IMG/VR virus record: IMGVR_UViG_3300017565_000002
Span: 1 to 64,000 of that record
DNA: 64,000 nucleotides
Reading direction: 5' to 3' (one strand)
Source of the DNA: a virus
Taxonomy: Duplodnaviria > Caudoviricetes
Shown: piece after piece, positions 2,650 to 15,927 of the stretch
Layout: the number at the start of each line of letters is the position of its first letter
Numbering within the stretch: the stretch's first letter is position 1
Program-made: the position numbers and the translations under genes
Notes under the pieces: generated by a model
Seen by the model: only the letters and a program-made list of their open reading frames with translations
Told to the model about the DNA's origin: nothing
Database searches by the model: none

Positions 2650-5600
2650 ATGATAGATCTAAAGGTTCTTAAACCTAATGTGGTATATCGGATGCAGACG
2701 ACCTTTCGATTACCGACTGAAATGAAAGATCCTTCACATGGTTCTGTTTACATGGCCGTTACAAAAACTCCAGATGGTACCGCCTCCTTTTTTAGTCATC
2801 CAAGATTGGCCGGTCGGTTTCTGTCTAAGTATCTAACCAACCGCATATACAATTATAGGATATATAATCTACTAATTAAGTACAGAGTTAAGGATGGCGA
2901 ATTAAAGCAAGAATTTAATACGAAGATAAAACCAAAGCTTCCGGCTTTGGATCTAGCAATGACGCCGGTTGTACTTGCTAGGCGAAACTACATCTACGAC
3001 TTTTCCCAGTTCAATGAACGATTTTTCGCCACGAATGATACTCGGATTGGCCTACGGCGAGTTAACGAGTATTTTCGATTATTCAAGCTATTTACCGTTG
3101 ATAAGGTAAACCAAACGCAATACACAAACCGGGTGCTATTTATTCCAATCTATGACTGGGTTAAAACAACCCGTGATACCAAACTATTCCGTATCCAAAA
3201 TACGGATAACTTTATTTCGCTATTCTATCTCAAATTGGTCAATGATCCTGATTATTTTAAAACGAATTTTGCCGGATGGAAGTTCTATTTCACAACGGAT
3301 ACGCAATGTCTCTACTGGAGACCAGATGATATTCATGCCAAATCCGCAGAGGAATTAGTTGCTCTGCTCAAGCGGTTCAGACCGGATGGTAAACAAGATA
3401 CGACGGTAACCGACGAAGCTGGGCAAGAAGATATCGAGACAAATGCTGCTACAAACCGAACGTTAATTGCAGATCAAGTATCACAAAACTTAGTTGCGTC
3501 CAATATTGAACCAACGGATCAACTGGTAGGTGCGTTAACCGATAAGGTAATTGAAAAGACGGGAATTAATCTATATTTACCTAATCCGCCATCGATCGAT
3601 GTATCCAAAGTCATCTCACCAAAGGAAATCGAGCTTGAGCAGGTTCAAGAAACGATGGAGCAAATCGTCCCTAAGTCTAGAGCACGCCTAGCGAGAGAAA
3701 CAAAACTGATTGAGGATATGAAGAATATTTCATTTGACGGTATGACGTTAGATGAGATTACAGCTAGGGCTAAAGCAAATACAATTGAAACTACCAAGTT
3801 TCCTGTAGATGTGATTAACCCAAGTTTGGCAGAGATGAAGTTTCCTAATTTTGACGAAGCCTATCTGAAAAATCTATATAAAGCAGATATCGTTAAGATT
3901 GTAACATCCTTTCAGTATAAAGACAAGCCACTGTATTTATTCGAAACCGAGGTTAAAGACGCAAGCGATGCTTTAAATGATCTGGAGGAATATGTCTTCA
4001 GGTTTGAAGATGAAGAAGGTCGTCGTCATACGTTCAGCATCCTCATGCCGAAGTTTACGGATAATCGTACGATGAAAATCGGTGGGAATACAAAGATCAT
4101 GTCCAATCAGATCATTCCTCTACCGATTATTAAAACTAGACCGGATACTGTACAGATATCGACCAATTACCAAAAGGTATTTATCCATCGATTTGGTCAG
4201 CAAATTTCTCCGAAGATTTCCATGCTGTTCAAATCACTAGGCGAACTGATGAATAAAGAAATTAAGATTGAGATCGGTGAAGCGTCGTCTTCCAATCGTC
4301 AATACATTCGGACCATCGAATATGATGAACTTGCATCTCGTTATAGGAGAATTATTCTCCCCCATACCGAGATCCATTTCAACCAGAATGTCATCCGTGA
4401 TGAAATTAAGAAGCTTGGCATTACGGGTACAATTCCGGATAATGCAATCCCTGTAGCGATAAAGAATAAGAGACCTATCTTTTTAAATACCGAAACGAAT
4501 TTGATTTCAGCGGCAGATTCTTCTGCGGTCGAGATGGATCTTGTTGATTTTATCGTCAATGAGATTTCATCCGCAGATCAGTCGTTTAAGTCTGCATTTT
4601 CATCCATGAAACCTGCGAAGAAATTCATGTATTCTCGGGCAGATATCATGGCTAAGAAAGTTCCGATTGTCATCCTCCTCGGGTATCTGGATGGGTTAAT
4701 CGGTTTAATGAAGAGAGCAAAGATTGATTATCGAATCATCACCAAGGATGTAACCCGTCGCAATCTCGACGTAAATACAAAGCGGGAAGCTGTTATTGAA
4801 TTTGAAGATGCATGGTTAGTATATCCAATATACCCGTTGAGAAATTCGCTTCTCTTGAATGGGTTTATGGAGATTCCAACGAAGATTTATCGGATCGAGC
4901 AATTCCTGAGCAAAGATGTTTATCATGAGCTATTCGAGACATTATTCGGAAGAAAAAACATCGGGTATGCATTCGAAAACTTCCAACAGTTGTTAATCGA
5001 CCCGATAACGGAAGATGTACTCCGCGATTATGGTCTTCCGACAGATTTTATCGATGTATTCCTGTATGCCAATACACTATTGGAGGATAACGCATTTAAC
5101 GAAGATAGTGATTTGGATGTACATCGAGTGAGATCAAACGAAATGGTTGCTGCTTTTATGTATAAATCGTTGGCAGAAGCCTACGAACAATACCGATTCA
5201 CGGCAAACAATCCGAATCCAACCCGTGTTTCTACGAGGAAGGATTCTGCAATCGTAAATATGCTGACATCACAGGTCACGAAGGATTTCTCTCGACTGAA
5301 CCCGATTTATACGCTCGAATTAAAGAGTTCCAGCACATGGAAAGGACCGGGTGGTATGAACGTAGATAGAGCCTTTAATCTGTCGAAACGTGCATATCAT
5401 CCATCCATGATCGGTGTACTGAGTCAAGCATCTCCGATTTCTTCTGCTATTGGTATTGCTAGAACATTGACGTTGGACGCAAACGTCATCTCGGCAAGAG
5501 GATATATCCAAACCTCTAAAACCAAAGAAGACATCAATAAGCTACCGACAACCAAACTGATCAGTGCGGCGGAAGCTCTGGTTCCATTTGGTGTGACATC

Positions 5601-6822
5601 TGATGATCCAGAGCGTACCGCAATGACATCTGCACAGAGCCGCCATACCATTGCTTGTATCGGAAGTCAACGCGCTCCGTTGGAAACTGGATTTGAGAAA
5701 ATACTTCCCCATCTCATTGGCGACACCTTTGTATATAAAGCCAAAGATGATGGTAAGATCATTAAAATTGATGAATCAACCAATCTTATGGTCATCAGAT
5801 ATCGTGATGGGAAAATAGAAACCGTCAATCTTAACCCCGAAATGGGTAAGAACTCAGGAAGTGGTTTCTATATTTCCAATAAATTATCACCCCTGTTTAA
5901 AACTGGCGATACGTTTAAGAAAGATACAATTCTCGCCCACAATAAAGACTTCTTTACCATTGATAAACGTTCAGGTAACCCGGTATTTATGACTGGCCCT
6001 TTGGCTCGTATTGCATTCCGCTATTCACCGAAGGTAATCGAGGACTCCACGGTATTATCGACTAGGTTAGCGGAAAAAATGAGTAGCTATATCGTAATAG
6101 AGAAGGAAGTTACACTGGGGCGAAACTCCAATGTAAGCTTTATGATTAAAAAGGGTCAGAATATTGACGTCAATGAACCGCTCATTATCTTCGATACTTC
6201 TCACACAGATGAGTTGACCAATAAAGTGCTTGCGAAGATTGGGGAGGATTCCACCAAGGATCTTCTCGAAGCTTCTAAGACCCCGATAACCTCGAAACAC
6301 AAGGGCGTGATTGAGGACATCAAGATTTATTACACCGTACCCAAAGATGAGTTATCTGACTCCATGCGGAAAATCATCGAAGGATACGAAACCGAGAATG
6401 AAAACCTCATCAAGGCTACTGTGAAAGATACGGGACTTAAGCATGAAGAGGTCAAGATATCCTTGACGCAAGTTGAACAGATCACACCTGACTTGTCCGG
6501 AAAGGTAAAGGGTGTGAAAGTCGGGGAAGGTGTACTGATTCAGTTCTATATTAAGTATAAGGACATATTCGGCGTCGGTGATAAGCTCACTTCTTTCGTA
6601 GCAACTAAAGCCATAGCTTGTGATGTATTTAAGGACGGAGAGGAACCTTATCTATTGAGTGACCCTACAGATAAAATTGATCTATACAGTGGTGTCATAT
6701 CTGTAGGGGCTCGGATGGTCATGAGCCTCCTGAAATCCGCACAAGTTAATGGTGTACTCATCGGTGCAAAAAAAAATGTAGCGAAGATGTATGAAGAAAT
6801 ATATGGCGAAAAGTTGAAATAA
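2650..6822 (+). CDS. rpoB: Phage multisubunit RNA polymerase beta-like subunit (large piece, probably virion RNAP)
   Basis: DDPERTAMTSAQSRHTI (cf. DDANRALMGANMQRQAV), PLETGFE, VGDKLTSFVATK (both catalytic Lys), GARM. Ends before the GEME C-terminus, as in split jumbo-phage beta; long non-RNAP N-terminal extension. Confidence 0.9.
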   Translation: MIDLKVLKPNVVYRMQTTFRLPTEMKDPSHGSVYMAVTKTPDGTASFFSHPRLAGRFLSKYLTNRIYNYRIYNLLIKYRVKDGELKQEFNTKIKPKLPALDLAMTPVVLARRNYIYDFSQFNERFFATNDTRIGLRRVNEYFRLFKLFTVDKVNQTQYTNRVLFIPIYDWVKTTRDTKLFRIQNTDNFISLFYLKLVNDPDYFKTNFAGWKFYFTTDTQCLYWRPDDIHAKSAEELVALLKRFRPDGKQDTTVTDEAGQEDIETNAATNRTLIADQVSQNLVASNIEPTDQLVGALTDKVIEKTGINLYLPNPPSIDVSKVISPKEIELEQVQETMEQIVPKSRARLARETKLIEDMKNISFDGMTLDEITARAKANTIETTKFPVDVINPSLAEMKFPNFDEAYLKNLYKADIVKIVTSFQYKDKPLYLFETEVKDASDALNDLEEYVFRFEDEEGRRHTFSILMPKFTDNRTMKIGGNTKIMSNQIIPLPIIKTRPDTVQISTNYQKVFIHRFGQQISPKISMLFKSLGELMNKEIKIEIGEASSSNRQYIRTIEYDELASRYRRIILPHTEIHFNQNVIRDEIKKLGITGTIPDNAIPVAIKNKRPIFLNTETNLISAADSSAVEMDLVDFIVNEISSADQSFKSAFSSMKPAKKFMYSRADIMAKKVPIVILLGYLDGLIGLMKRAKIDYRIITKDVTRRNLDVNTKREAVIEFEDAWLVYPIYPLRNSLLLNGFMEIPTKIYRIEQFLSKDVYHELFETLFGRKNIGYAFENFQQLLIDPITEDVLRDYGLPTDFIDVFLYANTLLEDNAFNEDSDLDVHRVRSNEMVAAFMYKSLAEAYEQYRFTANNPNPTRVSTRKDSAIVNMLTSQVTKDFSRLNPIYTLELKSSSTWKGPGGMNVDRAFNLSKRAYHPSMIGVLSQASPISSAIGIARTLTLDANVISARGYIQTSKTKEDINKLPTTKLISAAEALVPFGVTSDDPERTAMTSAQSRHTIACIGSQRAPLETGFEKILPHLIGDTFVYKAKDDGKIIKIDESTNLMVIRYRDGKIETVNLNPEMGKNSGSGFYISNKLSPLFKTGDTFKKDTILAHNKDFFTIDKRSGNPVFMTGPLARIAFRYSPKVIEDSTVLSTRLAEKMSSYIVIEKEVTLGRNSNVSFMIKKGQNIDVNEPLIIFDTSHTDELTNKVLAKIGEDSTKDLLEASKTPITSKHKGVIEDIKIYYTVPKDELSDSMRKIIEGYETENENLIKATVKDTGLKHEEVKISLTQVEQITPDLSGKVKGVKVGEGVLIQFYIKYKDIFGVGDKLTSFVATKAIACDVFKDGEEPYLLSDPTDKIDLYSGVISVGARMVMSLLKSAQVNGVLIGAKKNVAKMYEEIYGEKLK

Positions 6823-6826
6823 AGAG

Positions 6827-6854
6827 AAGGTAGAGGCTTAGATGCCTCTACCTT
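6827..6854. terminator. Bidirectional intrinsic terminator
   Basis: aaggtagaggc/gcctctacctt inverted repeat between convergent genes. Confidence 0.8.
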
Positions 6855-6859
6855 TATTT

Positions 6860-7291
6860 TTAATATAACCTAATACGTTCATTGGAAGAGATATAAATTT
6901 CATCTGCCACCATAGTCGGAACGCTTGTCCCTAATGCATAAACGCAGGATACACGCTCAGCTATGTATTCACGAATCCAGCCAAGATTATCGTTGTATTC
7001 CTTGACTGAATTAAATCTGGTGGATGGTAAGACCAATCGGTCACCCAATACCTCTTCCAGCATATCAAGGATCACAGGCGGCTTATTGGCTTCTTCGTGA
7101 AGTTCTCTGTGCATCCCACTATAATATACCAATAGACGAGTGCCATCACTCTCCACTCCTCGAAGCATACGTTTCAGCCGCAGACGTACTGTGTCCAAAT
7201 CATCAATAAGCGAAAATGAGATCTGAACACACAACTGTTTAATCGGAGTACCCGATTTTTCTGGAGTAACTAATTCAAGAGCATCTCTCAT
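6860..7291 (-). CDS. Hypothetical alpha/beta protein, paralog of 8070..8498
   Basis: Collinear similarity to 8070..8498 (QxxFS..D...VR..L; Y.G..R; D.L.E..G.R.V; V(A)(D/E)E). Confidence 0.65.
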   Translation of the reverse strand: MRDALELVTPEKSGTPIKQLCVQISFSLIDDLDTVRLRLKRMLRGVESDGTRLLVYYSGMHRELHEEANKPPVILDMLEEVLGDRLVLPSTRFNSVKEYNDNLGWIREYIAERVSCVYALGTSVPTMVADEIYISSNERIRLY

Positions 7292-7366
7292 TCATTAACA
7301 CCTGTCCTTTATCCAAATTTATACAATAGTTGGCCCATTGGTAATAAAAAAAGAAGGGCTGTATTT

Positions 7367-7954
7367 CTACAGCCCAAACATATGACGCAACCGGAATTTC
7401 ATCATCGTTGCACTGGTTTTCATCCTTGCTGCGATCAGCGCGGGACGATGTTCCAGTTCATCTTTGAAGATTTCTGTTGGTGTGCGGTCTTCGAGGTCCT
7501 TCGGCAGCTTCTTCAGTAACATCACCTTGGTCTCGCTGACCTTGACGTTTGTGTCTTTGTTTTTGCCCTTCTTTGGTTTACCTGCAAACTTCTCTCCGTT
7601 ACCATATCGAATCGTGGCCGACGACAATGCCGCCTTTACGTTCTCATTGGTGAACAGTGGGATGATCTTGCTGAACAAATCCCCAAGATCCGATTCCAAT
7701 TCCACGATTTGATACAAGCGAAGAATTGAATCGCTCATATCTTTCTTCCGTCCGTCGGTCAAGATTCCTTCCACCCGGCGAGCAACCTTTTTCAGTTTGA
7801 CATCAGCCGCCAAGCTCTCCCTCAGGAAATCTTTGATGCGAGCGGATGTACCGATAGGACCGCGGCGATTGTGGATGGTGATAGACACCGGAGACGAACC
7901 CTCGTGGTTTGGAATCAAACGGATTTTGTTTTCTTTTTCTTTCATTTTAATCAA
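7367..7954 (-). CDS. Basic hypothetical protein (early)
   Basis: 195-aa ORF, SD GGAG, early motif upstream, C-ending codon bias. Confidence 0.75.
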   Translation of the reverse strand: MIKMKEKENKIRLIPNHEGSSPVSITIHNRRGPIGTSARIKDFLRESLAADVKLKKVARRVEGILTDGRKKDMSDSILRLYQIVELESDLGDLFSKIIPLFTNENVKAALSSATIRYGNGEKFAGKPKKGKNKDTNVKVSETKVMLLKKLPKDLEDRTPTEIFKDELEHRPALIAARMKTSATMMKFRLRHMFGL

Positions 7955-7984
7955 TCTCCTTTAATTTATAGTCTCATTCCTGTA

Positions 7985-7996
7985 TATGATATATAA
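7985..7996 (-). promoter_or_regulatory. Early-type promoter TTATATATCATA
   Basis: Reverse complement of tatgatatataa, upstream of 7954. Confidence 0.6.
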
Positions 7997-8026
7997 CCGA
8001 ATATATGTATTTTTACGAAAAAAAGG

Positions 8027-8048
8027 CATAGGGGAAATCTCCCCTATG
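8027..8048 (-). terminator. Intrinsic terminator
   Basis: catagggg/cccctatg stem, T-run on the minus strand. Confidence 0.7.
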
Positions 8049-8069
8049 GCTGCGTTTTTATAATTTTGG

Positions 8070-8498
8070 TCAAACCCGGCGAATGAGTATATTGTTACCT
8101 ACACTTCCGGAGAGAAGTGATACCTCTTCTGCAACACCCTTCGGCAATTTCAATCCAAGCAGGACTCCACCGTATAACTTACTAACCATATTAGCTCGGA
8201 TTTGTGACAAACCCTTCAGGTATGCCGTGGCAGATTCATAATCATCTGCGACATAGACCACACGTGATCCACCAAGCTCGTCCAGTATATCAACGGCTTC
8301 AGTTGACCATCCCTTTTCTTGAACCATTGCACGATTCAGGCCAAACCAATAGAAATGATAATCAACACCCGTCTTTATCAAATCGTTGACCAATATTGCA
8401 AGGTTCTCTCTGACGAGCCGCATGTCATCATGTTCGACAGAAAACATCAATTGAAGATTTATACGCTTCGGTTTTATCTCATGCATCGACACTGTCAT
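8070..8498 (-). CDS. Hypothetical alpha/beta protein, paralog of 6860..7291
   Basis: See 6860..7291; SD AGGAGGAGG. Confidence 0.65.
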   Translation of the reverse strand: MTVSMHEIKPKRINLQLMFSVEHDDMRLVRENLAILVNDLIKTGVDYHFYWFGLNRAMVQEKGWSTEAVDILDELGGSRVVYVADDYESATAYLKGLSQIRANMVSKLYGGVLLGLKLPKGVAEEVSLLSGSVGNNILIRRV

Positions 8499-8626
8499 AT
8501 TGCAATTCCTCCTCCTCTTCTACTATTATTAATGTAAAGTCTATCCAATATATTTTTAGTATATTAATAAATCGCGTGCTGGACACACTATTAATATATT
8601 TAACCGAAAGTCGAGGAGGAACATAG

Positions 8627-9583
8627 ATGAAATTGGTCTATTGTACACCGGGTATCGGTGTTATCACAAACCATATCTCTCATATTCTACGCAATGACTA
8701 TAAAATTCCTAAACAGTTTGACCATACGAATGATGGTCTTGCACACGGCACCTTCATTATCCACATAACACATGAAGAGAGCCTGGATCTATTCAAAGAA
8801 CTATTGATGCGATCTCCGGGTCTCCATACATCACCATATTCGCTTAACCGAATACTTGAAACCAGAGATGGATACTATGTAACATTAAGTCCATTGTGTA
8901 TAGAGTCGTTACCAGTAGTCACGGAGATTGGTCAGACCGTTGTGGAATCCCTATCACCATATATTTATCAAACGTCATACCGAGAAGAAGATAACCATTA
9001 CGACATTTCATATCACGGAAAATGGGCATTTCACATATTGGATGATATGCGTCATTTCGGCCATCGGTATCTAAACGTACTAAACCAAACACAAATGTCC
9101 CGTGAAGAACTCAATAGGTTGATTACCCTTACAATCCGCCTTCGGTGTCCTAGGTATATCGCGGATGAAGTACAGCGATATATTCTATCCACACGAAATA
9201 AATATGCATCACCGGGTAAGAAGGTTTCCTTTTCGGAATTGCCTCCTGGGAGAAAGATGCATATGAAACTATCCAGTTTGACCAATGATGCAAATATAAC
9301 CACTGATAAAGTATTGATCGATGTGGATCGCATGGATGTATCAAAGTTCATCGATCAATTCATCAAGAATGACGTGGAGCATAAATTTGGAGAACGTCTA
9401 TATCCTGATACCATTCTTCAGGATGTATTCTGCACAATAACGATAGAGCACCTCATTGAATTCTTGGATGATAGACATCAAGCTCAACCACATTGGGTTT
9501 ACTTCAATTCCATTTGTAAAACGCTCATGGAAAATAACAATCTTATGGGCTTTATTTTAACAGGAAGGAAGTTGTCTATATGA
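8627..9583 (+). CDS. Degenerate ThyX (flavin-dependent thymidylate synthase)-like protein lacking the RHR catalytic motif
   Basis: GLAHGTFII (cf. AMLEHGTVYL), SPYS...YYVT, LTIRLRCPRYIADEVQRYILSTR (cf. TVRFICDRGVSHEFVRHRxxxxxxxSTR), LYPDTILQDVFCT...FLDDR (cf. VLPNSLKTExxxT...FFxLR). Confidence 0.6.
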   Translation: MKLVYCTPGIGVITNHISHILRNDYKIPKQFDHTNDGLAHGTFIIHITHEESLDLFKELLMRSPGLHTSPYSLNRILETRDGYYVTLSPLCIESLPVVTEIGQTVVESLSPYIYQTSYREEDNHYDISYHGKWAFHILDDMRHFGHRYLNVLNQTQMSREELNRLITLTIRLRCPRYIADEVQRYILSTRNKYASPGKKVSFSELPPGRKMHMKLSSLTNDANITTDKVLIDVDRMDVSKFIDQFIKNDVEHKFGERLYPDTILQDVFCTITIEHLIEFLDDRHQAQPHWVYFNSICKTLMENNNLMGFILTGRKLSI

Positions 9584-10137
9584 ATGAGAAAGTGGAGAAG
9601 ATTGTAATCTACGTCGCCTTTGATCCATCTGGCGGCGAAACGATCCACGAAGCATTTGTCATGTACATGATAGGCGATCAAGTTTCCGAGATTTACAACA
9701 TGAGCATGTTTTTTGATGAGACTTCTGAGGAGTCCATCAGAGATGGCATCTTTGACGAAGAAACTGATTCCCGTTTTATAGACAAAGAAAAGACCAAACT
9801 CCATCTCATGACGCTTGAGGGTACTGAGAATTACATGGAGCAGATTTTCGAAATGATAAATGTGCTAGATGCCAAGGGAGATATTGAATACGTCATCTAC
9901 AATGAATCCGTCTCTCATTCAGATTTCTTCTACGATCTTGAGGAATATATTCAGAATAAAGATGACTACTTCTTACCTGTGAAGTTCTGTGATGTGTTTG
10001 TAGTTGATTCCGACATCGGAAGCTTACTTACAAAATACGGCCTCACAAATCATAGCTACTCCAAAGATTCTCCAATCTCCTGTGCTGTTTATACCGGTAT
10101 CCTATTCGATATTGGAATAGGTAGATATCATCAGTAG
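9580..10137 (+). CDS. Acidic hypothetical protein, translationally coupled to the ThyX-like gene
   Basis: ATGA overlap at 9580-9583; terminator at 10143-10174. Confidence 0.75.
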   Translation: MNEKVEKIVIYVAFDPSGGETIHEAFVMYMIGDQVSEIYNMSMFFDETSEESIRDGIFDEETDSRFIDKEKTKLHLMTLEGTENYMEQIFEMINVLDAKGDIEYVIYNESVSHSDFFYDLEEYIQNKDDYFLPVKFCDVFVVDSDIGSLLTKYGLTNHSYSKDSPISCAVYTGILFDIGIGRYHQ

Positions 10138-10142
10138 ACAAA

Positions 10143-10174
10143 AAACCCACAAGGGCAAAGGCTCTTGTGGGTTT
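10143..10174 (+). terminator. Intrinsic terminator
   Basis: aaacccacaag/cttgtgggttt stem. Confidence 0.7.
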
Positions 10175-10218
10175 ACATTATTGAATTGCCGTCTTAAGTT
10201 TTGGCCATAACTCATTTT

Positions 10219-10230
10219 AACATCCAATTA
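10219..10230 (+). promoter_or_regulatory. Late-type promoter AACA-N6-TA
   Basis: AACAtccaatTA upstream of 10263. Confidence 0.65.
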
Positions 10231-10262
10231 ACCAAGAAACTCGTCATTTTGGAGGTGTTAAA

Positions 10263-10997
10263 ATGCGGATACCTAAGATCAATGCATATCGGGATACATC
10301 TGGCTACGATTCAGTCGTAGAGAATATTGATATTGATCTGCTTGAAGACGTTGAGTATTATCAAAATATCGACCCTGAAAATACCAAAGAGTTCCCTAAG
10401 GTTATCAGGACCTACAAGATGTTGACGCGAGCCAGTTTTGAATATAAAGAAATGGCAAAATTCTTAAAGGCCCATCATGATATGAATCAATCCTTCTTTT
10501 TCAAGGGTATCAAACACACAGAGGATAAGAAATTCTCATTGGAGATTCACCATGCGCCATTTACACTCGAAGATATTGTCGCTACCGTCATTTTAAAACG
10601 TCTATCTAACGGAGAATCGACAAATCATATGGATGTCTGTAGAGAGATTATGCATCTCCACTACGCTGGAGCAGTGGGTCTTATCCCATTGGATAGAACC
10701 TCGCATGCGTTGATCCATAGTCCTGATGCACCAGAACTATTTGCACCGATTCAACACATTCCATTTGGGGAATGTCATCGGTTCTATAAGGAATATAAGA
10801 AATATATTCCGGATAACGTCAAAGCGACGTATGCTTATATTCAGGATTTATCCATGAAGTATGAGCGGATTTCTGATATTATCCCTAGTTATATGAAACC
10901 TAAGGCGTTGTATTACGAGGGATTTATCAAAATCGAGAAATTTGAAGAATTGCTGGACGAGATCGAACGATCGAACTCCGCTCTCGTTAATGTCTAA
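10263..10997 (+). CDS. His-rich, HNH-like conserved phage protein (paralog of 19107..19733)
   Basis: LEIHHAPFTLEDI ... GLIPLDRTSHALIH, a pattern resembling ββα-metal HH...LxxxxH. Confidence 0.5.
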   Translation: MRIPKINAYRDTSGYDSVVENIDIDLLEDVEYYQNIDPENTKEFPKVIRTYKMLTRASFEYKEMAKFLKAHHDMNQSFFFKGIKHTEDKKFSLEIHHAPFTLEDIVATVILKRLSNGESTNHMDVCREIMHLHYAGAVGLIPLDRTSHALIHSPDAPELFAPIQHIPFGECHRFYKEYKKYIPDNVKATYAYIQDLSMKYERISDIIPSYMKPKALYYEGFIKIEKFEELLDEIERSNSALVNV

Positions 10998-10998
10998 C

Positions 10999-11025
10999 TC
11001 AGGAAGAGATTATTTCTCTTCCTGA
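10999..11025 (+). terminator. Intrinsic terminator
   Basis: tcaggaagag/ctcttcctga stem plus T-run. Confidence 0.8.
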
Positions 11026-11039
11026 CTCTTTTTTTAGTC

Positions 11040-11048
11040 ATATATTAT
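11040..11048 (+). promoter_or_regulatory. Early-type promoter ATATATTAT
   Basis: Immediately upstream of the RNase H gene. Confidence 0.5.
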
Positions 11049-11066
11049 ATATGCGCTATCATAATA

Positions 11067-11828
11067 ATGAAGGAGATGATAAAGATGCGATTTGAGATAT
11101 TCACAGACGGCTCATCCTATATTGGATCTACCGACAAAACCCAACGAGCCAGTTCGTGTGCCTATAAGATTCTCATATATGGGCGACAGTTATTTATGAA
11201 TGGTCGGTTTCTACCCGGTGGTACGAATAACTCTGGCGAAGTAAGTGCGGTCTTAGATGGACTCCGTGCATTAGACGAATCCATTAAGAGAGTCCGATCC
11301 GGAAAGATAAAACCGCCGTATGATGTGTGGTTGTATACTGATAGTTTAATCACGAGAGATTCATGTAAGACGGATATCTACAAATGGATCAAGAGAGGGA
11401 GCCATACCCATTATATCAATTCTGCTGGAGATGCAGTTGCAAATCAGACCATCTATCGAAGTATTTATAGGGAGTTTCTTACCAACCCTATGTATGACAT
11501 TACGTTTATCCATATCAATAGCCACTGTATTGAAACTGCTATCTACAGAAGCAATATGGATAAAATCATTGCTTACGTAGATAACCCTGTACCTAGGCTA
11601 AGGAAACAAATTCCCGAAGAAGTATTCACACATCCCAAGCTTATTCATGCGATGAAAACGTTCTATGATACAAATGGTATGGAGATATCAGAGACGGACT
11701 TGCTACGGCTTCTGATACATAATAAGGACGTAGATGAATTAGCAGCCGGAATATTGAATGAGGGGCTTGAAGAAAGTGGTATACGCCCTGCGGAGGTGAA
11801 AAAATGGCCAAAGAGAGCAAGAAGTTAA
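11067..11828 (+). CDS. rnhA: Ribonuclease HI
   Basis: IFTDGSS, TNNSGEVSAV, YTDS, HINSH, NKDVDELA: all four acidic catalytic residues in RNase HI context. Confidence 0.9.
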   Translation: MKEMIKMRFEIFTDGSSYIGSTDKTQRASSCAYKILIYGRQLFMNGRFLPGGTNNSGEVSAVLDGLRALDESIKRVRSGKIKPPYDVWLYTDSLITRDSCKTDIYKWIKRGSHTHYINSAGDAVANQTIYRSIYREFLTNPMYDITFIHINSHCIETAIYRSNMDKIIAYVDNPVPRLRKQIPEEVFTHPKLIHAMKTFYDTNGMEISETDLLRLLIHNKDVDELAAGILNEGLEESGIRPAEVKKWPKRARS

Positions 11829-12388
11829 GAAAGCTAAATCGCAAGCTCAAGAAACTCGATGAAGAGTTGTACAATAATAAGTACGTCTCTAGAGAAGAGT
11901 TTCTCAAATCTAAACTATCAAAGTCGCTGAAAGCCTACTACAAGAAACTCTCAGACGAGCGAAAGGCACATTTTCTCAGATATATCATCAGAGATGAAGA
12001 CTGGGAAACTATGCAGTCATTGATTCAAAGCCGTCGGGTGGAAGACGATGATGAAGAGGGAGTAGATAACGTTCCTCGGTCATTAAAAGAACTTAACCGA
12101 CTTGCCGCTACGCCAAAGAAGACAAAAAAGAAGAAGAAAGATAAACGTAACGTCTTGAGGATGAAAAGGGGTCTGTTGAAAGTTTTAAACCCGGAATCCC
12201 ATGATCGAGCGCTTCTAAGCAATAAGGATTACCGGAAGTACCTGAAGAAACTGGCAGATAAGGAAATGAAGAAAGATGCAAATGTCCAACTTGACTGCAC
12301 AATCAAGAACTTCAGAGAAGTTCTGATGGATAATGATACAGTGAATACGGCAGTCATGGATAGCTTCTGGAATAAACACGGTTATTGA
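11804..12388 (+). CDS. Highly charged hypothetical protein
   Basis: Overlaps the RNase H 3-prime end; SD GGAGGTG; Lys-rich and acidic tracts. Confidence 0.7.
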   Translation: MAKESKKLRKLNRKLKKLDEELYNNKYVSREEFLKSKLSKSLKAYYKKLSDERKAHFLRYIIRDEDWETMQSLIQSRRVEDDDEEGVDNVPRSLKELNRLAATPKKTKKKKKDKRNVLRMKRGLLKVLNPESHDRALLSNKDYRKYLKKLADKEMKKDANVQLDCTIKNFREVLMDNDTVNTAVMDSFWNKHGY

Positions 12389-12407
12389 TACTCACTTCTT
12401 AGAATGA

Positions 12408-12418
12408 GTATATATTAT
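12408..12418 (+). promoter_or_regulatory. Early-type promoter GTATATATTAT
   Basis: Upstream of the kinase gene. Confidence 0.6.
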
Positions 12419-12466
12419 AGGAGTGTAGTATTATAATGAAACTAAATAGAGGGAGTGTTTTAAGGT

Positions 12467-14149
12467 ATGAGAATTAATCAACTCATCCCACGTGAGGCGA
12501 TGGACAAAATCGCCAAATGGGTCGATCGGCCTATCAACCAGATAGAAAAGACCGAAAAGTATGAAAAGCTCCTCAAGCGGTATGGATTCAATCAACTTGA
12601 CCTTGGAACCAACCGCGAGATCTATACGCATGAAAAATACCCGAAGGTCGTATTCAAAATCGCCTTGGATGAACAGGGCGTATTGGACAATTTGAATGAA
12701 TACGAGAAATCTGATAAATCCAAGTATTTCCCGATGAGCTATGACATCGATACCGACGGCTATGTGCTTATTCAGCAGCGGACGCCGGTGATGCAACTCT
12801 CGACGTTCCGGGAAAAGGAAGTACAGAAACGGGTTCGGAAGATCTTGAGGCAGCTCGACAGCGAAGGATTCTATCTGTTGGATCTGGGGGCTGATAAGCA
12901 TAAGAACTTCGGTATGGATAAGAAGGGTGAAATTTATATCCTCGATTTTGGTTATGTCGGGTATAAATCCTTGTGCAATTTCAATTGCCCACACACTCGG
13001 GTTATCAAACCGGGCAAACAGGAGTTTTGCAAAGGTAAGTTGGATTACAACAAAAGCTTTACAATGCTCGTCTGCGATGAATGTGAGAATGCATTCAAAG
13101 TGGATGTTGCAATGGAAGGGTATACACAAACCATGTATGCCAAACCACCGGAGAAGGAGGAATTCCGCCCATCGAAGGATTTGGAGGATTTCTACAAAAG
13201 CTTCAATAAACACCGGGATCGTGGCACATTAAAACGGTATGTTTCACTGACAAAGAGCGAAGAGAATCGGGTGATGACCCCGGTTGTATCAACGAAACCG
13301 ATAACAGAACCACCATCGGCAAAGGATCGTTTCCTTGCATTGGCAGGTAAGGTGGCAGCGGCAGAAGACAGTGATAAAGTTCAACTACCTGCACTTGACG
13401 ACCCAATGGATGACGACGACGAAGATGACGATGATGAAGAATTCGATGCACCTCGCACGTTAAGGTCACAGATTGATGATGACGACGATGATGAGGACGA
13501 GGATGAAGAGGAAGATGAACCATATGTGGATGCTGAGGGTGATGTATATGAAACAGCTCCACGGCCAATTCTGCATCATGATGAAGACCGTGATGTGGTG
13601 CAAGATAATATCGAAGATGGTCAATATCAAAAAGCCATGGAATACCTCATGGCAACCGGAGTCTCGGAGAAGAATTCTGGAGAAATTGTAACTGCATTAT
13701 TCTATGAGAGATTCCCGGAAATGAAAAGGATAATCACAGACTTTGATAAAGAAGTCGAACGCAGGGTAGCTGAACGGGAAGCTATATTCCGCCTTGAGCA
13801 TGCCAATGCAAATATAACTGAAAAAGAACCTGAGCCGGTACTGATGGAAACTATTGATGATATTTCAGTATTGGAAGACTTGGGTATTGTGGTCAGCAAG
13901 CCAAGCGATGGTGAACTCCAAAATGAGATTCACATCGGGATGTCCGCAGAAAATCTGAAGAAGCGGCCGATTATCGTTATATCCAAAAACGATGTCGTCT
14001 ACTATATAGACCTTCTCGCACACGTTGACCGGTTGATTGAGTTCAAATCTCCACTCTTTGATGGGGATATGATCGTCACGTCAATGGTTGCAGAGCCGGT
14101 CGATGAATTCAATCGGGATTATGATGATCGATATTTCGAAAACGACTGA
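12467..14149 (+). CDS. Protein kinase-like fold protein with Cys4 zinc ribbon and acidic low-complexity linker
   Basis: LDLGTNR (Gly loop), VVFKI, NLNEY, DLGADKHKNFG (catalytic D...N), ILDFGY; then CxxxC/C...CxxC; poly-D/E tract. Confidence 0.75.
   Translation: MRINQLIPREAMDKIAKWVDRPINQIEKTEKYEKLLKRYGFNQLDLGTNREIYTHEKYPKVVFKIALDEQGVLDNLNEYEKSDKSKYFPMSYDIDTDGYVLIQQRTPVMQLSTFREKEVQKRVRKILRQLDSEGFYLLDLGADKHKNFGMDKKGEIYILDFGYVGYKSLCNFNCPHTRVIKPGKQEFCKGKLDYNKSFTMLVCDECENAFKVDVAMEGYTQTMYAKPPEKEEFRPSKDLEDFYKSFNKHRDRGTLKRYVSLTKSEENRVMTPVVSTKPITEPPSAKDRFLALAGKVAAAEDSDKVQLPALDDPMDDDDEDDDDEEFDAPRTLRSQIDDDDDDEDEDEEEDEPYVDAEGDVYETAPRPILHHDEDRDVVQDNIEDGQYQKAMEYLMATGVSEKNSGEIVTALFYERFPEMKRIITDFDKEVERRVAEREAIFRLEHANANITEKEPEPVLMETIDDISVLEDLGIVVSKPSDGELQNEIHIGMSAENLKKRPIIVISKNDVVYYIDLLAHVDRLIEFKSPLFDGDMIVTSMVAEPVDEFNRDYDDRYFEND
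13408..13515 (+). repeat. (GAY/GAR)n coding low-complexity tract (poly-Asp/Glu)
   Basis: gatgacgacgacgaagatgacgatgatgaagaa... encoding DDDDEDDDDEE and DDDDDDEDEDEEEDE. Confidence 0.8.
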
Positions 14150-14245
14150 TTATCTCGAATGGGTTCGTACTAATACGGGTATAATCCGGCATAGTTAAAT
14201 ACTATGCCGGAAACACCAGATAAATTTCATTAGGAGGCTACACAA

Positions 14246-15058
14246 ATGATTATTGTAAACGAATCTAGCTTCACAAAGCTGTCGGATGACAGCAAATCTT
14301 TGCGGAACTCTTTCATCTATATCCTTTCCCCGCAACTGACGTTGCAGAAGGATGGCGATGATGAAGAAGAGATCCGCAGCAACGACAAATTGTCGTATCT
14401 TCGCCCGTCACAGGAGCTGCTCGACAAGCTGGCTTCCGGCGAAATCAACAAGAAGAAATTCAAGAAAGCATACATCAAGCAGTTGAAAGAACCCGAAAAT
14501 GAGTTTTACATCTACACCATCATCCGCAGCCTGAATGAAGATCGGTATATGCCGATATTCGTGGTAAACGATGAAGATTGGGATATCGGCTTCGTCAAGG
14601 TGCTGGCAAACTACCTTGAAGAAAGATTCGGTATCAAGCAACTGAAAGTCAAGGGCTACCTGTCGGAAGTGAAGCAGGCTTGGAAGACGGCAAAGAAAAC
14701 GTCGTCGAAAGGCAAAAAGCGCGAAAAAGAGTTCAATGCTCAAATCAAGGGCTACTTGCGCGACAATGTTAACCTCTCCTTCGAGGGTATCAAAGCGCTC
14801 GAAGAATTGGACAAGAAATATGCGATCCATCGGATGGCTGTGAAAATAAACAATAGCAAGCCGGGCGATATTAAACGGAAAGATATCGCCAAAGGCATCA
14901 AGCTGTACCAAGAGTACAGCAAGAAATCCGCCAAGCGGGTTAAGCGGGCAATCGATGCACTCGGCATTTCGAAGAAGCCGGATCGTTGGTCCAAGGATGA
15001 CGGAGTCGGCCTTGTGGCATATCTGTATGAGGATATCCACAAAGGTAGCGACGAGTAA
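14246..15058 (+). CDS. Lys-rich hypothetical protein, likely abundant
   Basis: SD GGAGG, strong C-ending codon bias, perfect inverted repeat (ccggcatagt/actatgccgg) and a near-late promoter upstream, terminator at 15069-15091. Confidence 0.75.
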   Translation: MIIVNESSFTKLSDDSKSLRNSFIYILSPQLTLQKDGDDEEEIRSNDKLSYLRPSQELLDKLASGEINKKKFKKAYIKQLKEPENEFYIYTIIRSLNEDRYMPIFVVNDEDWDIGFVKVLANYLEERFGIKQLKVKGYLSEVKQAWKTAKKTSSKGKKREKEFNAQIKGYLRDNVNLSFEGIKALEELDKKYAIHRMAVKINNSKPGDIKRKDIAKGIKLYQEYSKKSAKRVKRAIDALGISKKPDRWSKDDGVGLVAYLYEDIHKGSDE

Positions 15059-15068
15059 TAGGAAGACG

Positions 15069-15091
15069 GGAAGTGTCATAATGACACTTCC
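15069..15091 (+). terminator. Intrinsic terminator
   Basis: ggaagtgtca/tgacacttcc stem plus T-run. Confidence 0.8.
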
Positions 15092-15126
15092 TTTCTTTTT
15101 TACTTGATTTCAAGGGATGATCTACA

Positions 15127-15927
15127 ATGAAGCTGCGGCTAAAGGAACTTCTAGACCATGACCTATGGAAAAGAGACCTCTACTTACAAGATATTGACTA
15201 TATCATAGGTGCTAACATCTTCGAGTATGACATGAAAGACGCCGGTTATCATCTGAGTATGGAATACCAACTCTTGGATGAAGCTACATTGGAATACTTA
15301 GGAACACTAGTCAAAAAGGAACGAACGATACGTATTGGACTCCTCATGAGGGATAATCCCGACTTTAGCAAGAAACTTACAAAAGCCTTCGGACAGATGA
15401 GACGACGATTCTTTATTGCCAATGACATTCAACACCGTCAGATCTTATCGATTAAAAAGGACGCAATATTTTTGATCAATAAGGGTTGTGACAAAGTTAA
15501 ATTTGGTGATGTGGAGTTCGTATTGAAAAATAGATATACCTCGTTCCATCGGTTTAGATCTTCCGAGTTCTATTATCGAAACCGAGGGAAGGTATTAGAT
15601 GTAAAGGGTATCTCTAATGATAAACTCATACCCCATGAGGAATATATGATATCTTTCTTAAAGGAAACGTTCCTTGCATTGGAGACAACTGACAATCGGA
15701 GGATCGTTTCAAAGGTCAAAAAATTTGCTTCGGATTACAAGAACGGTAGATTACCCGTCGAGTATTATCGGGAGTTAAATAGCGGGTCAATGTACACGTT
15801 CAAGTCTCAGGGAGATAATATTGTACAATCTCAATATCAACTTCCGGGCTTTGAGATTGAACGATCGTATAACTACATGGTTTATATTTTGCCACTGATC
15901 CAACGGTTCTTCTTTATCACCAACTAA
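15127..15927 (+). CDS. Minimal DNA polymerase palm-like protein (no exonuclease domain)
   Basis: FEYDMKDAG (motif A-like Asp), K.ER...IG (fingers-like), LSIKKDAIF (motif C-like Asp in a hairpin). Confidence 0.5.
   Translation: MKLRLKELLDHDLWKRDLYLQDIDYIIGANIFEYDMKDAGYHLSMEYQLLDEATLEYLGTLVKKERTIRIGLLMRDNPDFSKKLTKAFGQMRRRFFIANDIQHRQILSIKKDAIFLINKGCDKVKFGDVEFVLKNRYTSFHRFRSSEFYYRNRGKVLDVKGISNDKLIPHEEYMISFLKETFLALETTDNRRIVSKVKKFASDYKNGRLPVEYYRELNSGSMYTFKSQGDNIVQSQYQLPGFEIERSYNYMVYILPLIQRFFFITN

Follow-up and report, generated by a model that had tools for sequence, protein, structure and literature searches.

How is a phage protein to be understood that keeps the layout of the flavin-dependent thymidylate synthase ThyX (also called FDTS), yet has lost the signature of its active site? 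The question is raised by a gene in a virus of the Caudoviricetes (Duplodnaviria), lying within positions 1 to 64,000 of the IMG/VR record IMGVR_UViG_3300017565_000002; this whole stretch of 64,000 nucleotides (nt) is referred to below as the window. The gene occupies positions 8627-9583 of the forward strand as an uninterrupted open reading frame (ORF), and its product of 318 amino acids (aa) is here called P0001. An earlier note, made from the sequence alone, had taken P0001 for a dead ThyX and a possible decoy that lowers thymidine monophosphate (dTMP) in a putative uracil-DNA phage. Our analysis upholds the first half of that interpretation, a maintained and ThyX-derived fold without its signature, and does not bear out the second, namely the uracil-DNA premise and the decoy mechanism. 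The explanation we favour, with a probability of about 0.6, is that P0001 is a ThyX-derived pseudoenzyme acting by binding, probably a binding or scaffold protein exapted for early infection or replication.

The peptide strings on which the likeness to ThyX had first been noticed are all present in the translation (LAHGTF at residues 38-43, SPYS...YYVT, EELNRLITLTIRLRCPRYIADEV, QRYILSTR at 183-190 and LYPDTILQDVFCTITIEHLIEFLDDR). The expected match to the Pfam family of ThyX (PF02511, Thy1) could not be recovered. P0001 had no match in Pfam at E<=10, the PF02511 profile found nothing over the whole genome, and NCBIfam, PADLOC and PHROGs offered no family for it, the sole match being phrog_37221 with an E-value of 0.12. 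Searching the Protein Data Bank (PDB) with P0001 using phmmer gave chance matches only, a word-indexed protein search recovered the query alone, and 50,697 phage records searched by tblastn with four family members as queries yielded no match. An exhaustive phmmer search over 1.8 billion representatives identified 11 metagenomic homologues (E 6e-26 to 6e-4), which share 24-33 % identity with P0001 and constitute with it a ThyX-like family of 12 members (alignment A1) for which neither Pfam nor PHROGs has a model. P0002, the member that matches best, reaches 15 bits against PF02511 (E 0.022; residues 225-267 on profile positions 121-163), and the gathering threshold of 24.8 bits is not reached by the family. 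The A1 profile, in turn, reaches four PDB sequences only, amongst them ThyX of T. maritima, with which HMMER aligns profile positions 176-307.

The guess of a ThyX fold held when models, learned features and profiles were compared. The AlphaFold2 (AF2) model, built from the 12 family members with no templates, has a predicted local distance difference test score (pLDDT) of 76 and a predicted template-modelling score (pTM) of 0.72; a single-sequence model (pLDDT 41) was too poor for use. ThyX is the top match of the model in the PDB, BFVD, AFDB clusters and the ESM Atlas. In the Foldseek search of the PDB, the best 50 rows are all ThyX (E ~7e-3, probability 0.97-0.99). Amongst 48,161 chains compared by VIA-align, four ThyX clusters lead (4fzb, Z 6.7; 5chp, 6.6; 2af6, 6.1; 3ah5, 6.0), the ThyX-fold UMP/dUMP methylase PolB (4p5a) is found at Z 5.7, and all these matches fall on model residues ~130-316. 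In BFVD, long phage ThyX proteins are detected at E 4.7e-6 to 4e-4, including the 346-aa ThyX of Brevibacillus phage Jenst with template-modelling (TM) scores of 0.54/0.50, and in the ESM Atlas a 422-aa viral Thy1 cluster is matched at TM 0.66 over 278 aligned residues (span 1-314, root-mean-square deviation 4.5). Identity in the structure-search alignments between the P0001 family and ThyX is 10-18 %. Language-model features, which involve no structural model, give 96 viral Thy1 (PF02511) clusters of 350-380 aa amongst the 100 nearest Atlas clusters (score 0.93, 175-178 shared features).

Compared with canonical ThyX (T. maritima TM0449, 1O26; M. tuberculosis, 2AF6; H. pylori, 3AH5; PBCV-1, 4FZB), P0001 shares the core fold at ~130-316 and differs by an extra insert and an N-terminus of the long type. 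These two features are found in the long phage ThyX proteins (Brevibacillus phage Jenst/SecTim467, 346 aa, KT151955; viral PF02511 clusters of 350-420 aa), which we define by a split Thy1 domain, an insert of ~100 aa and a total of 330-420 aa; PF02511 matches the Jenst enzyme as two pieces with the insert between them, and P0001 is split in the same manner. N-terminal segment, insert and core are all common to P0001 and the long proteins, with full-length structural matches at TM 0.54-0.66, the 422-aa Atlas protein and the 346-aa Jenst protein both aligning over the full length of P0001. A comparison of A1 with the single Jenst sequence by hhalign was not significant. When A1 was compared with a profile (A3) that combines the Jenst enzyme and its genuine long ThyX relatives, 19 sequences in all, the alignment was collinear over 281 columns with a score of 36.0 (E 4.7e-4), higher than the reversed profile (14.7) and than all 30 block shuffles (maximum 31.4). 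Here residues 1-60 are paired with residues 3-70 of long phage ThyX, and MKLVYCTP is aligned with TLLYSTP, in keeping with the kLly-TP start common to Jenst-type enzymes. A weak resemblance of residues 1-100 to RNA polymerase (RNAP) subunit L/Rpb11 (VIA-align Z 4.8-5.9) was set aside because the full-length match to long ThyX accounts better for this segment. Taken together, the full-length structural matches, the feature likeness and the collinear profile alignment argue that P0001, as judged from model and profiles, derives, N-terminus and insert included, from the long phage ThyX proteins with their insertion.

What distinguishes P0001 from these enzymes is the active site. ThyX uses flavin adenine dinucleotide (FAD) to convert deoxyuridine monophosphate (dUMP) to dTMP, and is a homotetramer in which active sites are shared between subunits. 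The motif RHR-x7-S-x-R is the ThyX element that binds the FAD phosphate as well as dUMP, with S88 and R90 in T. maritima, and R147 and R174 of the same enzyme are the substrate arginines of its second half. In the long ThyX profile A3, RH...S-Q-R-Y, R286, R307, R319, H323 and E327 are invariant; this catalytic set is replaced throughout the P0001 family, at an identity of ~14 % to the long enzymes. In the first region (long ThyX/T. maritima numbering), R213/R78 is paired with R184 of P0001 in a variable family column (RDTNLKRRRQK), H214/H79 falls in a one-residue gap and R80 is paired with Y185, followed by S224/S88 opposite A194 (column ACSNCRSSNWC) and R226/R90 opposite S195 (column STARTITSIAL). 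In the second region, R307/R147 is paired with I271, in a column that is hydrophobic in all 12 members, and R319/R174 with R283, an arginine in P0001 only (column RPDSHTTNVKPS). The HMMER alignment to T. maritima ThyX and the hhalign transfer give the same register. The hydrophobic core columns are kept in the family (L74, Y178, L181, L191, L295, P296, I304 and W312, the last as L). In these alignments every ThyX column serving FAD, dUMP or chemistry is replaced family-wide while the core is kept, and P0001 is left without RHR-x7-S-x-R and without equivalents of R147 and R174. The loss of the FAD/dUMP signature, claimed earlier for the one protein, is confirmed for the whole family. The proposed route to it, a 5-residue deletion pairing S188-T-R190 with S88-x-R90, gives way to substitution and two single-residue gaps in the profile alignments.

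The loss of the signature has not been accompanied by loss of the gene. Each of the eight syntenic contigs whose context was fetched has it as an uninterrupted frame of full length, and the 11 homologues, full- or near-full-length, lie in syntenic phage contigs. The order of the block is constant, with RNAP beta followed by one to three small reverse genes, the ThyX-like gene, a gene of ~240 aa (phrog_12252) and RNase H, and after RNase H by genes of ~190, 535-580 and 270 aa. In these contigs identity to the window copy is ~25 % for the ThyX-like protein, as against 52-61 % for RNAP beta, 52-62 % for the product of the 244-aa gene, 34-44 % for RNase H and 29-42 % for the exonuclease-fold gene; by this measure the comparison shows the ThyX-like gene to be the fastest-evolving of its block. 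Strain variants were sought as a means of measuring selection, and the copy from a second soil study proved identical. The evidence supports a gene that is maintained and not decaying, as the earlier note had supposed from the intact ORF and strong ribosome-binding site.

Upstream of the ThyX-like gene the late motif of AR9 type, AACA-N6-T[AG], is absent. A different upstream motif, TATATTAT, is observed in 17 upstream regions of the whole genome where 1.7 are expected; its class also stands upstream of RNase H (11067), a 560-aa gene (12467) and a helicase at 120837, and a variant, GTATATTA, sits upstream of the ThyX-like gene. From the absence of the late motif together with this variant, we infer expression with the non-late genes of replication and takeover; the promoter role of the element listed in Table 1 is likewise inferred from the motif counts. 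This second upstream motif, written TATATATTAT (e.g. window 11030-11066, 12400-12466 and 8554-8568), is separate from the AACA-N6-T[AG] class. As a candidate promoter of early or middle expression, it lies upstream of genes of replication type, RNase H and a helicase amongst them.

The fold and its core have been kept, the active site has been lost, and the gene, always retained, diverges rapidly; this combination suits a protein exapted for binding or as a scaffold more than it suits an enzyme. According to this explanation, an ancestral phage ThyX would have become redundant for dTMP synthesis and then been exapted as a binding or scaffold protein. The present protein would be expressed alongside the non-late (replication and takeover) genes, would work via protein or ligand binding with no methyl transfer, and would have no part in creating a uracil genome.

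The last of these steps is connected with the nucleotide metabolism encoded in the rest of the genome, a complete virus record of 215,803 bp with direct terminal repeats. It encodes a complete ThyA of Bacillus type and a dUTPase, both outside the window (Table 1). The best solved relative of the phage ThyA is that of B. subtilis (E 2.7e-89), and with the ThyA proteins of Brevibacillus, Bacillus and Paenibacillus it shares 43-50 % identity. The enzymes that have been shown by experiment to produce DNA with deoxyuridine (dU) are a dCTP/dCDP deaminase and, in addition, either a phosphatase acting on dTMP (PF06941 or PF12917) or a pyrophosphatase acting on dTTP (PF01725), and the dU-DNA machinery of PBS1, phiR1-37 and DSS3_VP1 consists of the Dcd deaminase and the Dtm/Dtt hydrolases (PMC12697855). 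In the complete 215.8-kb genome no PF00383 deaminase was found, and PF06941, PF12917 and PF01725 had no match at E<=1; as a positive control, a PF00383-family deaminase is present in LPJP1, PBS1, phiR1-37 and S6. Known dU phages show the reverse of the gene set seen here; the relatives PBS1, phiR1-37, S6 and LPJP1 carry no ThyA, dUTPase or ThyX, and ThyA and dUTPase are absent from all five relatives tested. Judged by gene content, the phage probably makes and uses thymidylate and has a thymine (or thymine-derived) genome. Since it has its own ThyA and dUTPase and the dU enzymes are absent, the ThyX-like copy would not be a route to a uracil genome.

The earlier note had coupled its reading of a uracil genome with promoters of AR9 type, and their presence is borne out, as AACA-N6-T[AG] occurs upstream of 30 of the 201 genes where ~5 are expected. 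The virus, a jumbo phage, encodes an RNA polymerase of several subunits. Its RNAP beta (2650-6822) is closest to the PBS1/Goe21, LPJP1, phiR1-37 and Staphylococcus S6 group at ~31 % identity, and by this protein the phage belongs to a sister group of the dU phages PBS1, phiR1-37 and S6. What the enrichment of the motif demonstrates is a related transcription machinery; it does not demonstrate uracil in the genome. Homologues of P0001 are absent from LPJP1, PBS1, phiR1-37, S6, JD-Fnp6 and PhiPA3, and in LPJP1 and S6 the genes after RNAP beta are unrelated to the ThyX-like gene.

Amongst the rival explanations, the one that survives best, although we consider it unlikely, overlaps with the reading preferred here. 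P0001 would be a host-directed inhibitor or decoy of early infection, a mimic of some host or phage protein that blocks a metabolic or defence factor of the host or soaks up a ligand, and that evolves in an arms race. The fastest evolution in a conserved block from which the gene is never lost would suit such a role, as would the non-late promoter class, and pseudoenzymes commonly act by binding; PADLOC, however, gives no match. The version put forward earlier, in which P0001 poisons the ThyX tetramers of the host, conflicts with the ThyA and dUTPase of the phage and finds little to act upon: of the five Bacillales genomes, likely of the host lineage, in which the nearest relatives of the phage ThyA are encoded, four have no ThyX. 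The identity of 10-18 % to ThyX and the fast divergence further argue against co-assembly with a conserved host tetramer. That the early-expressed dead fold targets a host factor, sequesters nucleotide, flavin or folate, or acts as a mimic to blind host defence is in our estimate a doubtful proposal. On that view a regulatory or counter-defence role would for the first time fall to a pseudoenzyme derived from ThyX, and its evolution would be that of an arms race.

It is also improbable, in our view, that P0001 is a re-tooled enzyme, with a new active site on the ThyX fold and another reaction on nucleotide or DNA, for instance a step of base modification in which the adjoining exonuclease-fold protein might participate. 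Conservation across the family extends to some 15 polar positions (H40, E78, T79, Y83, Y84, D140, R142, S158, R159, E160, N163, S216, D266 and T270; H40 and E78 in 9/9 sequences each, D140 in 11/11, S216 and D266 in 11/12 each), and of these H40, E78, D140, R142, S216 and D266 may be counted in favour of such an enzyme. The presence of the PolB methylase amongst the structural matches points in the same direction, and the ThyX fold supports other C5 chemistry. Against it, the FAD- and nucleotide-phosphate-binding arginines are all lost with no conserved substitute nearby in sequence, no folate, flavin or modification genes are adjacent, and the divergence is faster than that of every enzyme of the block, which is unusual for an enzyme.

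A functionless, slowly decaying relic that is open by chance would account for the lowest conservation in the block and for the loss of catalytic residues. It is nevertheless very unlikely, given a frame open and full-length in 8/8 syntenic contigs despite divergence to 24-35 % identity, a strong Shine-Dalgarno sequence and a conserved hydrophobic core with conserved motifs (LxDMRY, LSREELN, LSxLT, LPxST..D.F.T). A decoy that depletes dTMP to allow the building of a uracil genome has a real dead-site fold, a genuine RNAP kinship and a genuine AR9-type motif in its favour. It is scarcely credible and ranks last: the phage supplies a dTMP pathway of its own, with which such a protein is difficult to square, Dcd, Dtm and Dtt are missing, and none of the known dU phages tested, with their opposite gene set, possesses the gene.

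Several points weigh against the exapted pseudoenzyme favoured here. TM-scores of the model to solved ThyX structures are low (0.25-0.38), and the AF2 model is based on 12 sequences only. The fast divergence could reflect weak constraint and not a role. The conserved polar set could form a new active site, so that the label 'non-catalytic' is established solely for the making of thymidylate in the manner of ThyX. ThyA is assigned by similarity only, at 48-50 % to the ThyA of Bacillales, and strictly speaking it could instead be a dUMP hydroxymethylase. Finally, none of the RNA runs searched contains the stretch.

In the literature searched, no mention was found of a ThyX pseudoenzyme or of catalytically inactive phage homologues of flavin-dependent thymidylate synthase, and what was found on ThyX in phages consists of routine genome annotations and a general review only. 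The family described here shows that a phage enzyme of nucleotide metabolism can lose its chemistry and yet be kept for another use. The practical gain is modest until the function is found. The phages that carry the gene are of value in themselves as a clade sister to the uracil-DNA jumbo phages, with the same RNA polymerase type and late-promoter motif and, by gene content, with thymidylate; they offer a natural comparison of AR9-type polymerases reading T and U promoters.

Table 1. Features of the ThyX-like locus and related genes, in window positions unless marked otherwise
Feature	Position	Strand	Basis
P0001, ThyX-fold pseudoenzyme gene (proposed), 318 aa	8627..9583	+	ORF and translation, homologues, AF2 model, structure-library matches, language-model features
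N-terminal part of ThyX, aa 1-60, with the first strand (MKLVYCTP) and the strand that carries conserved His40	8627..8806	+	hhalign
Insert, aa ~61-130, separating the two parts of the ThyX domain	8807..9016	+	counterpart in long phage ThyX
Core ThyX domain, aa ~131-318	9017..9580	+	VIA-align, HMMER
Degenerate signature EVQRYILSTRNKYASP, aa 181-196, where RHR-x7-S-x-R is expected	9167..9214	+	column table
LYPD...FLDDR stretch, aa 259-284, the LP...NAR...LR region of ThyX, substrate arginines lost	9401..9478	+	column table, P0002 match to PF02511
Candidate non-late promoter element TTTTAGTATATTAAT, variant of upstream motif TATATTAT	8554..8568	+	motif counts
Shine-Dalgarno GAGGAGG, ATG 7 nt further on	8613..8619	+	read from sequence
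185-aa gene, start overlapping the ThyX-like stop (ATGA), RNase H-like/DEDD exonuclease fold (predicted)	9580..10137	+	homologues, Atlas model
Terminator-like hairpin closing the unit after the 244-aa gene	10999..11025	+	11-bp stem, then T-run
ThyA	119859-120785 (L012:4859-5782), outside window		PF00303 243 bits, above TIGR03284 cut-off
dUTPase	124176-124694 (L012:9176-9691), outside window		NF001862 equivalog, 141 bits vs cut-off 103

The block to which the ThyX-like gene belongs, of ~13 kb (window 2650-15927, from RNAP beta to the genes of 266-270 aa), recurs with its synteny intact in five or more metagenomic contigs of soil and groundwater origin (loci L004, L016, L017, L018 and L019). As megablast and tblastn against the 50,697 phage records gave no match for the clade, the phages with this block form, by their sequences, a clade that has not been described and of which no member is in culture or in GenBank. 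The phage of the window is known only from soil metagenomes, of two studies. In the soil runs of the second study, window 7000-12000 is identical, with no differences in contigs, at low depth.

A gene of 183-193 aa lies directly 3' of the ThyX-like gene in six contexts (L003, L004, L005, L017, L019/L020), and its homologues share 37-42 % identity (alignment A2); in L016 and L018 no homologue stands directly after the ThyX-like gene. The Atlas model of the 185-aa protein gives TM 0.62-0.68 to RNase_H_2 and PolB exonuclease clusters, so that its designation as a DEDD exonuclease is a fold-level lead only, and it might be a separate or degenerate exonuclease of the proofreading type. The protein contains a conserved stretch F-[DTN]-E-E-T-[DS]-S, in which the first acid is not invariant. 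A related-locus search with alignment A2 returned no viral contig. A complex prediction for the ThyX-like and 185-aa proteins scored 0.00, a value that counts neither for nor against binding.

Two further observations concern the surroundings of these genes. The intergenic region between the divergent genes at 8070-8498 (-) and 8627 (+) contains a short GC hairpin, GCGTGCTGGACACAC, at 8574-8588, flanked (8557-8604) by inverted TATATTAAT / ATTAATATA elements; judging by its layout, the region could serve as an operator or as a promoter for both directions. Towards the end of the block, the 270-aa protein encoded at window 14246-15058, with 42-44 % identity in related contigs, has sub-threshold matches to both active and inactive DUF488-N3 subclades at E 0.002-0.004.

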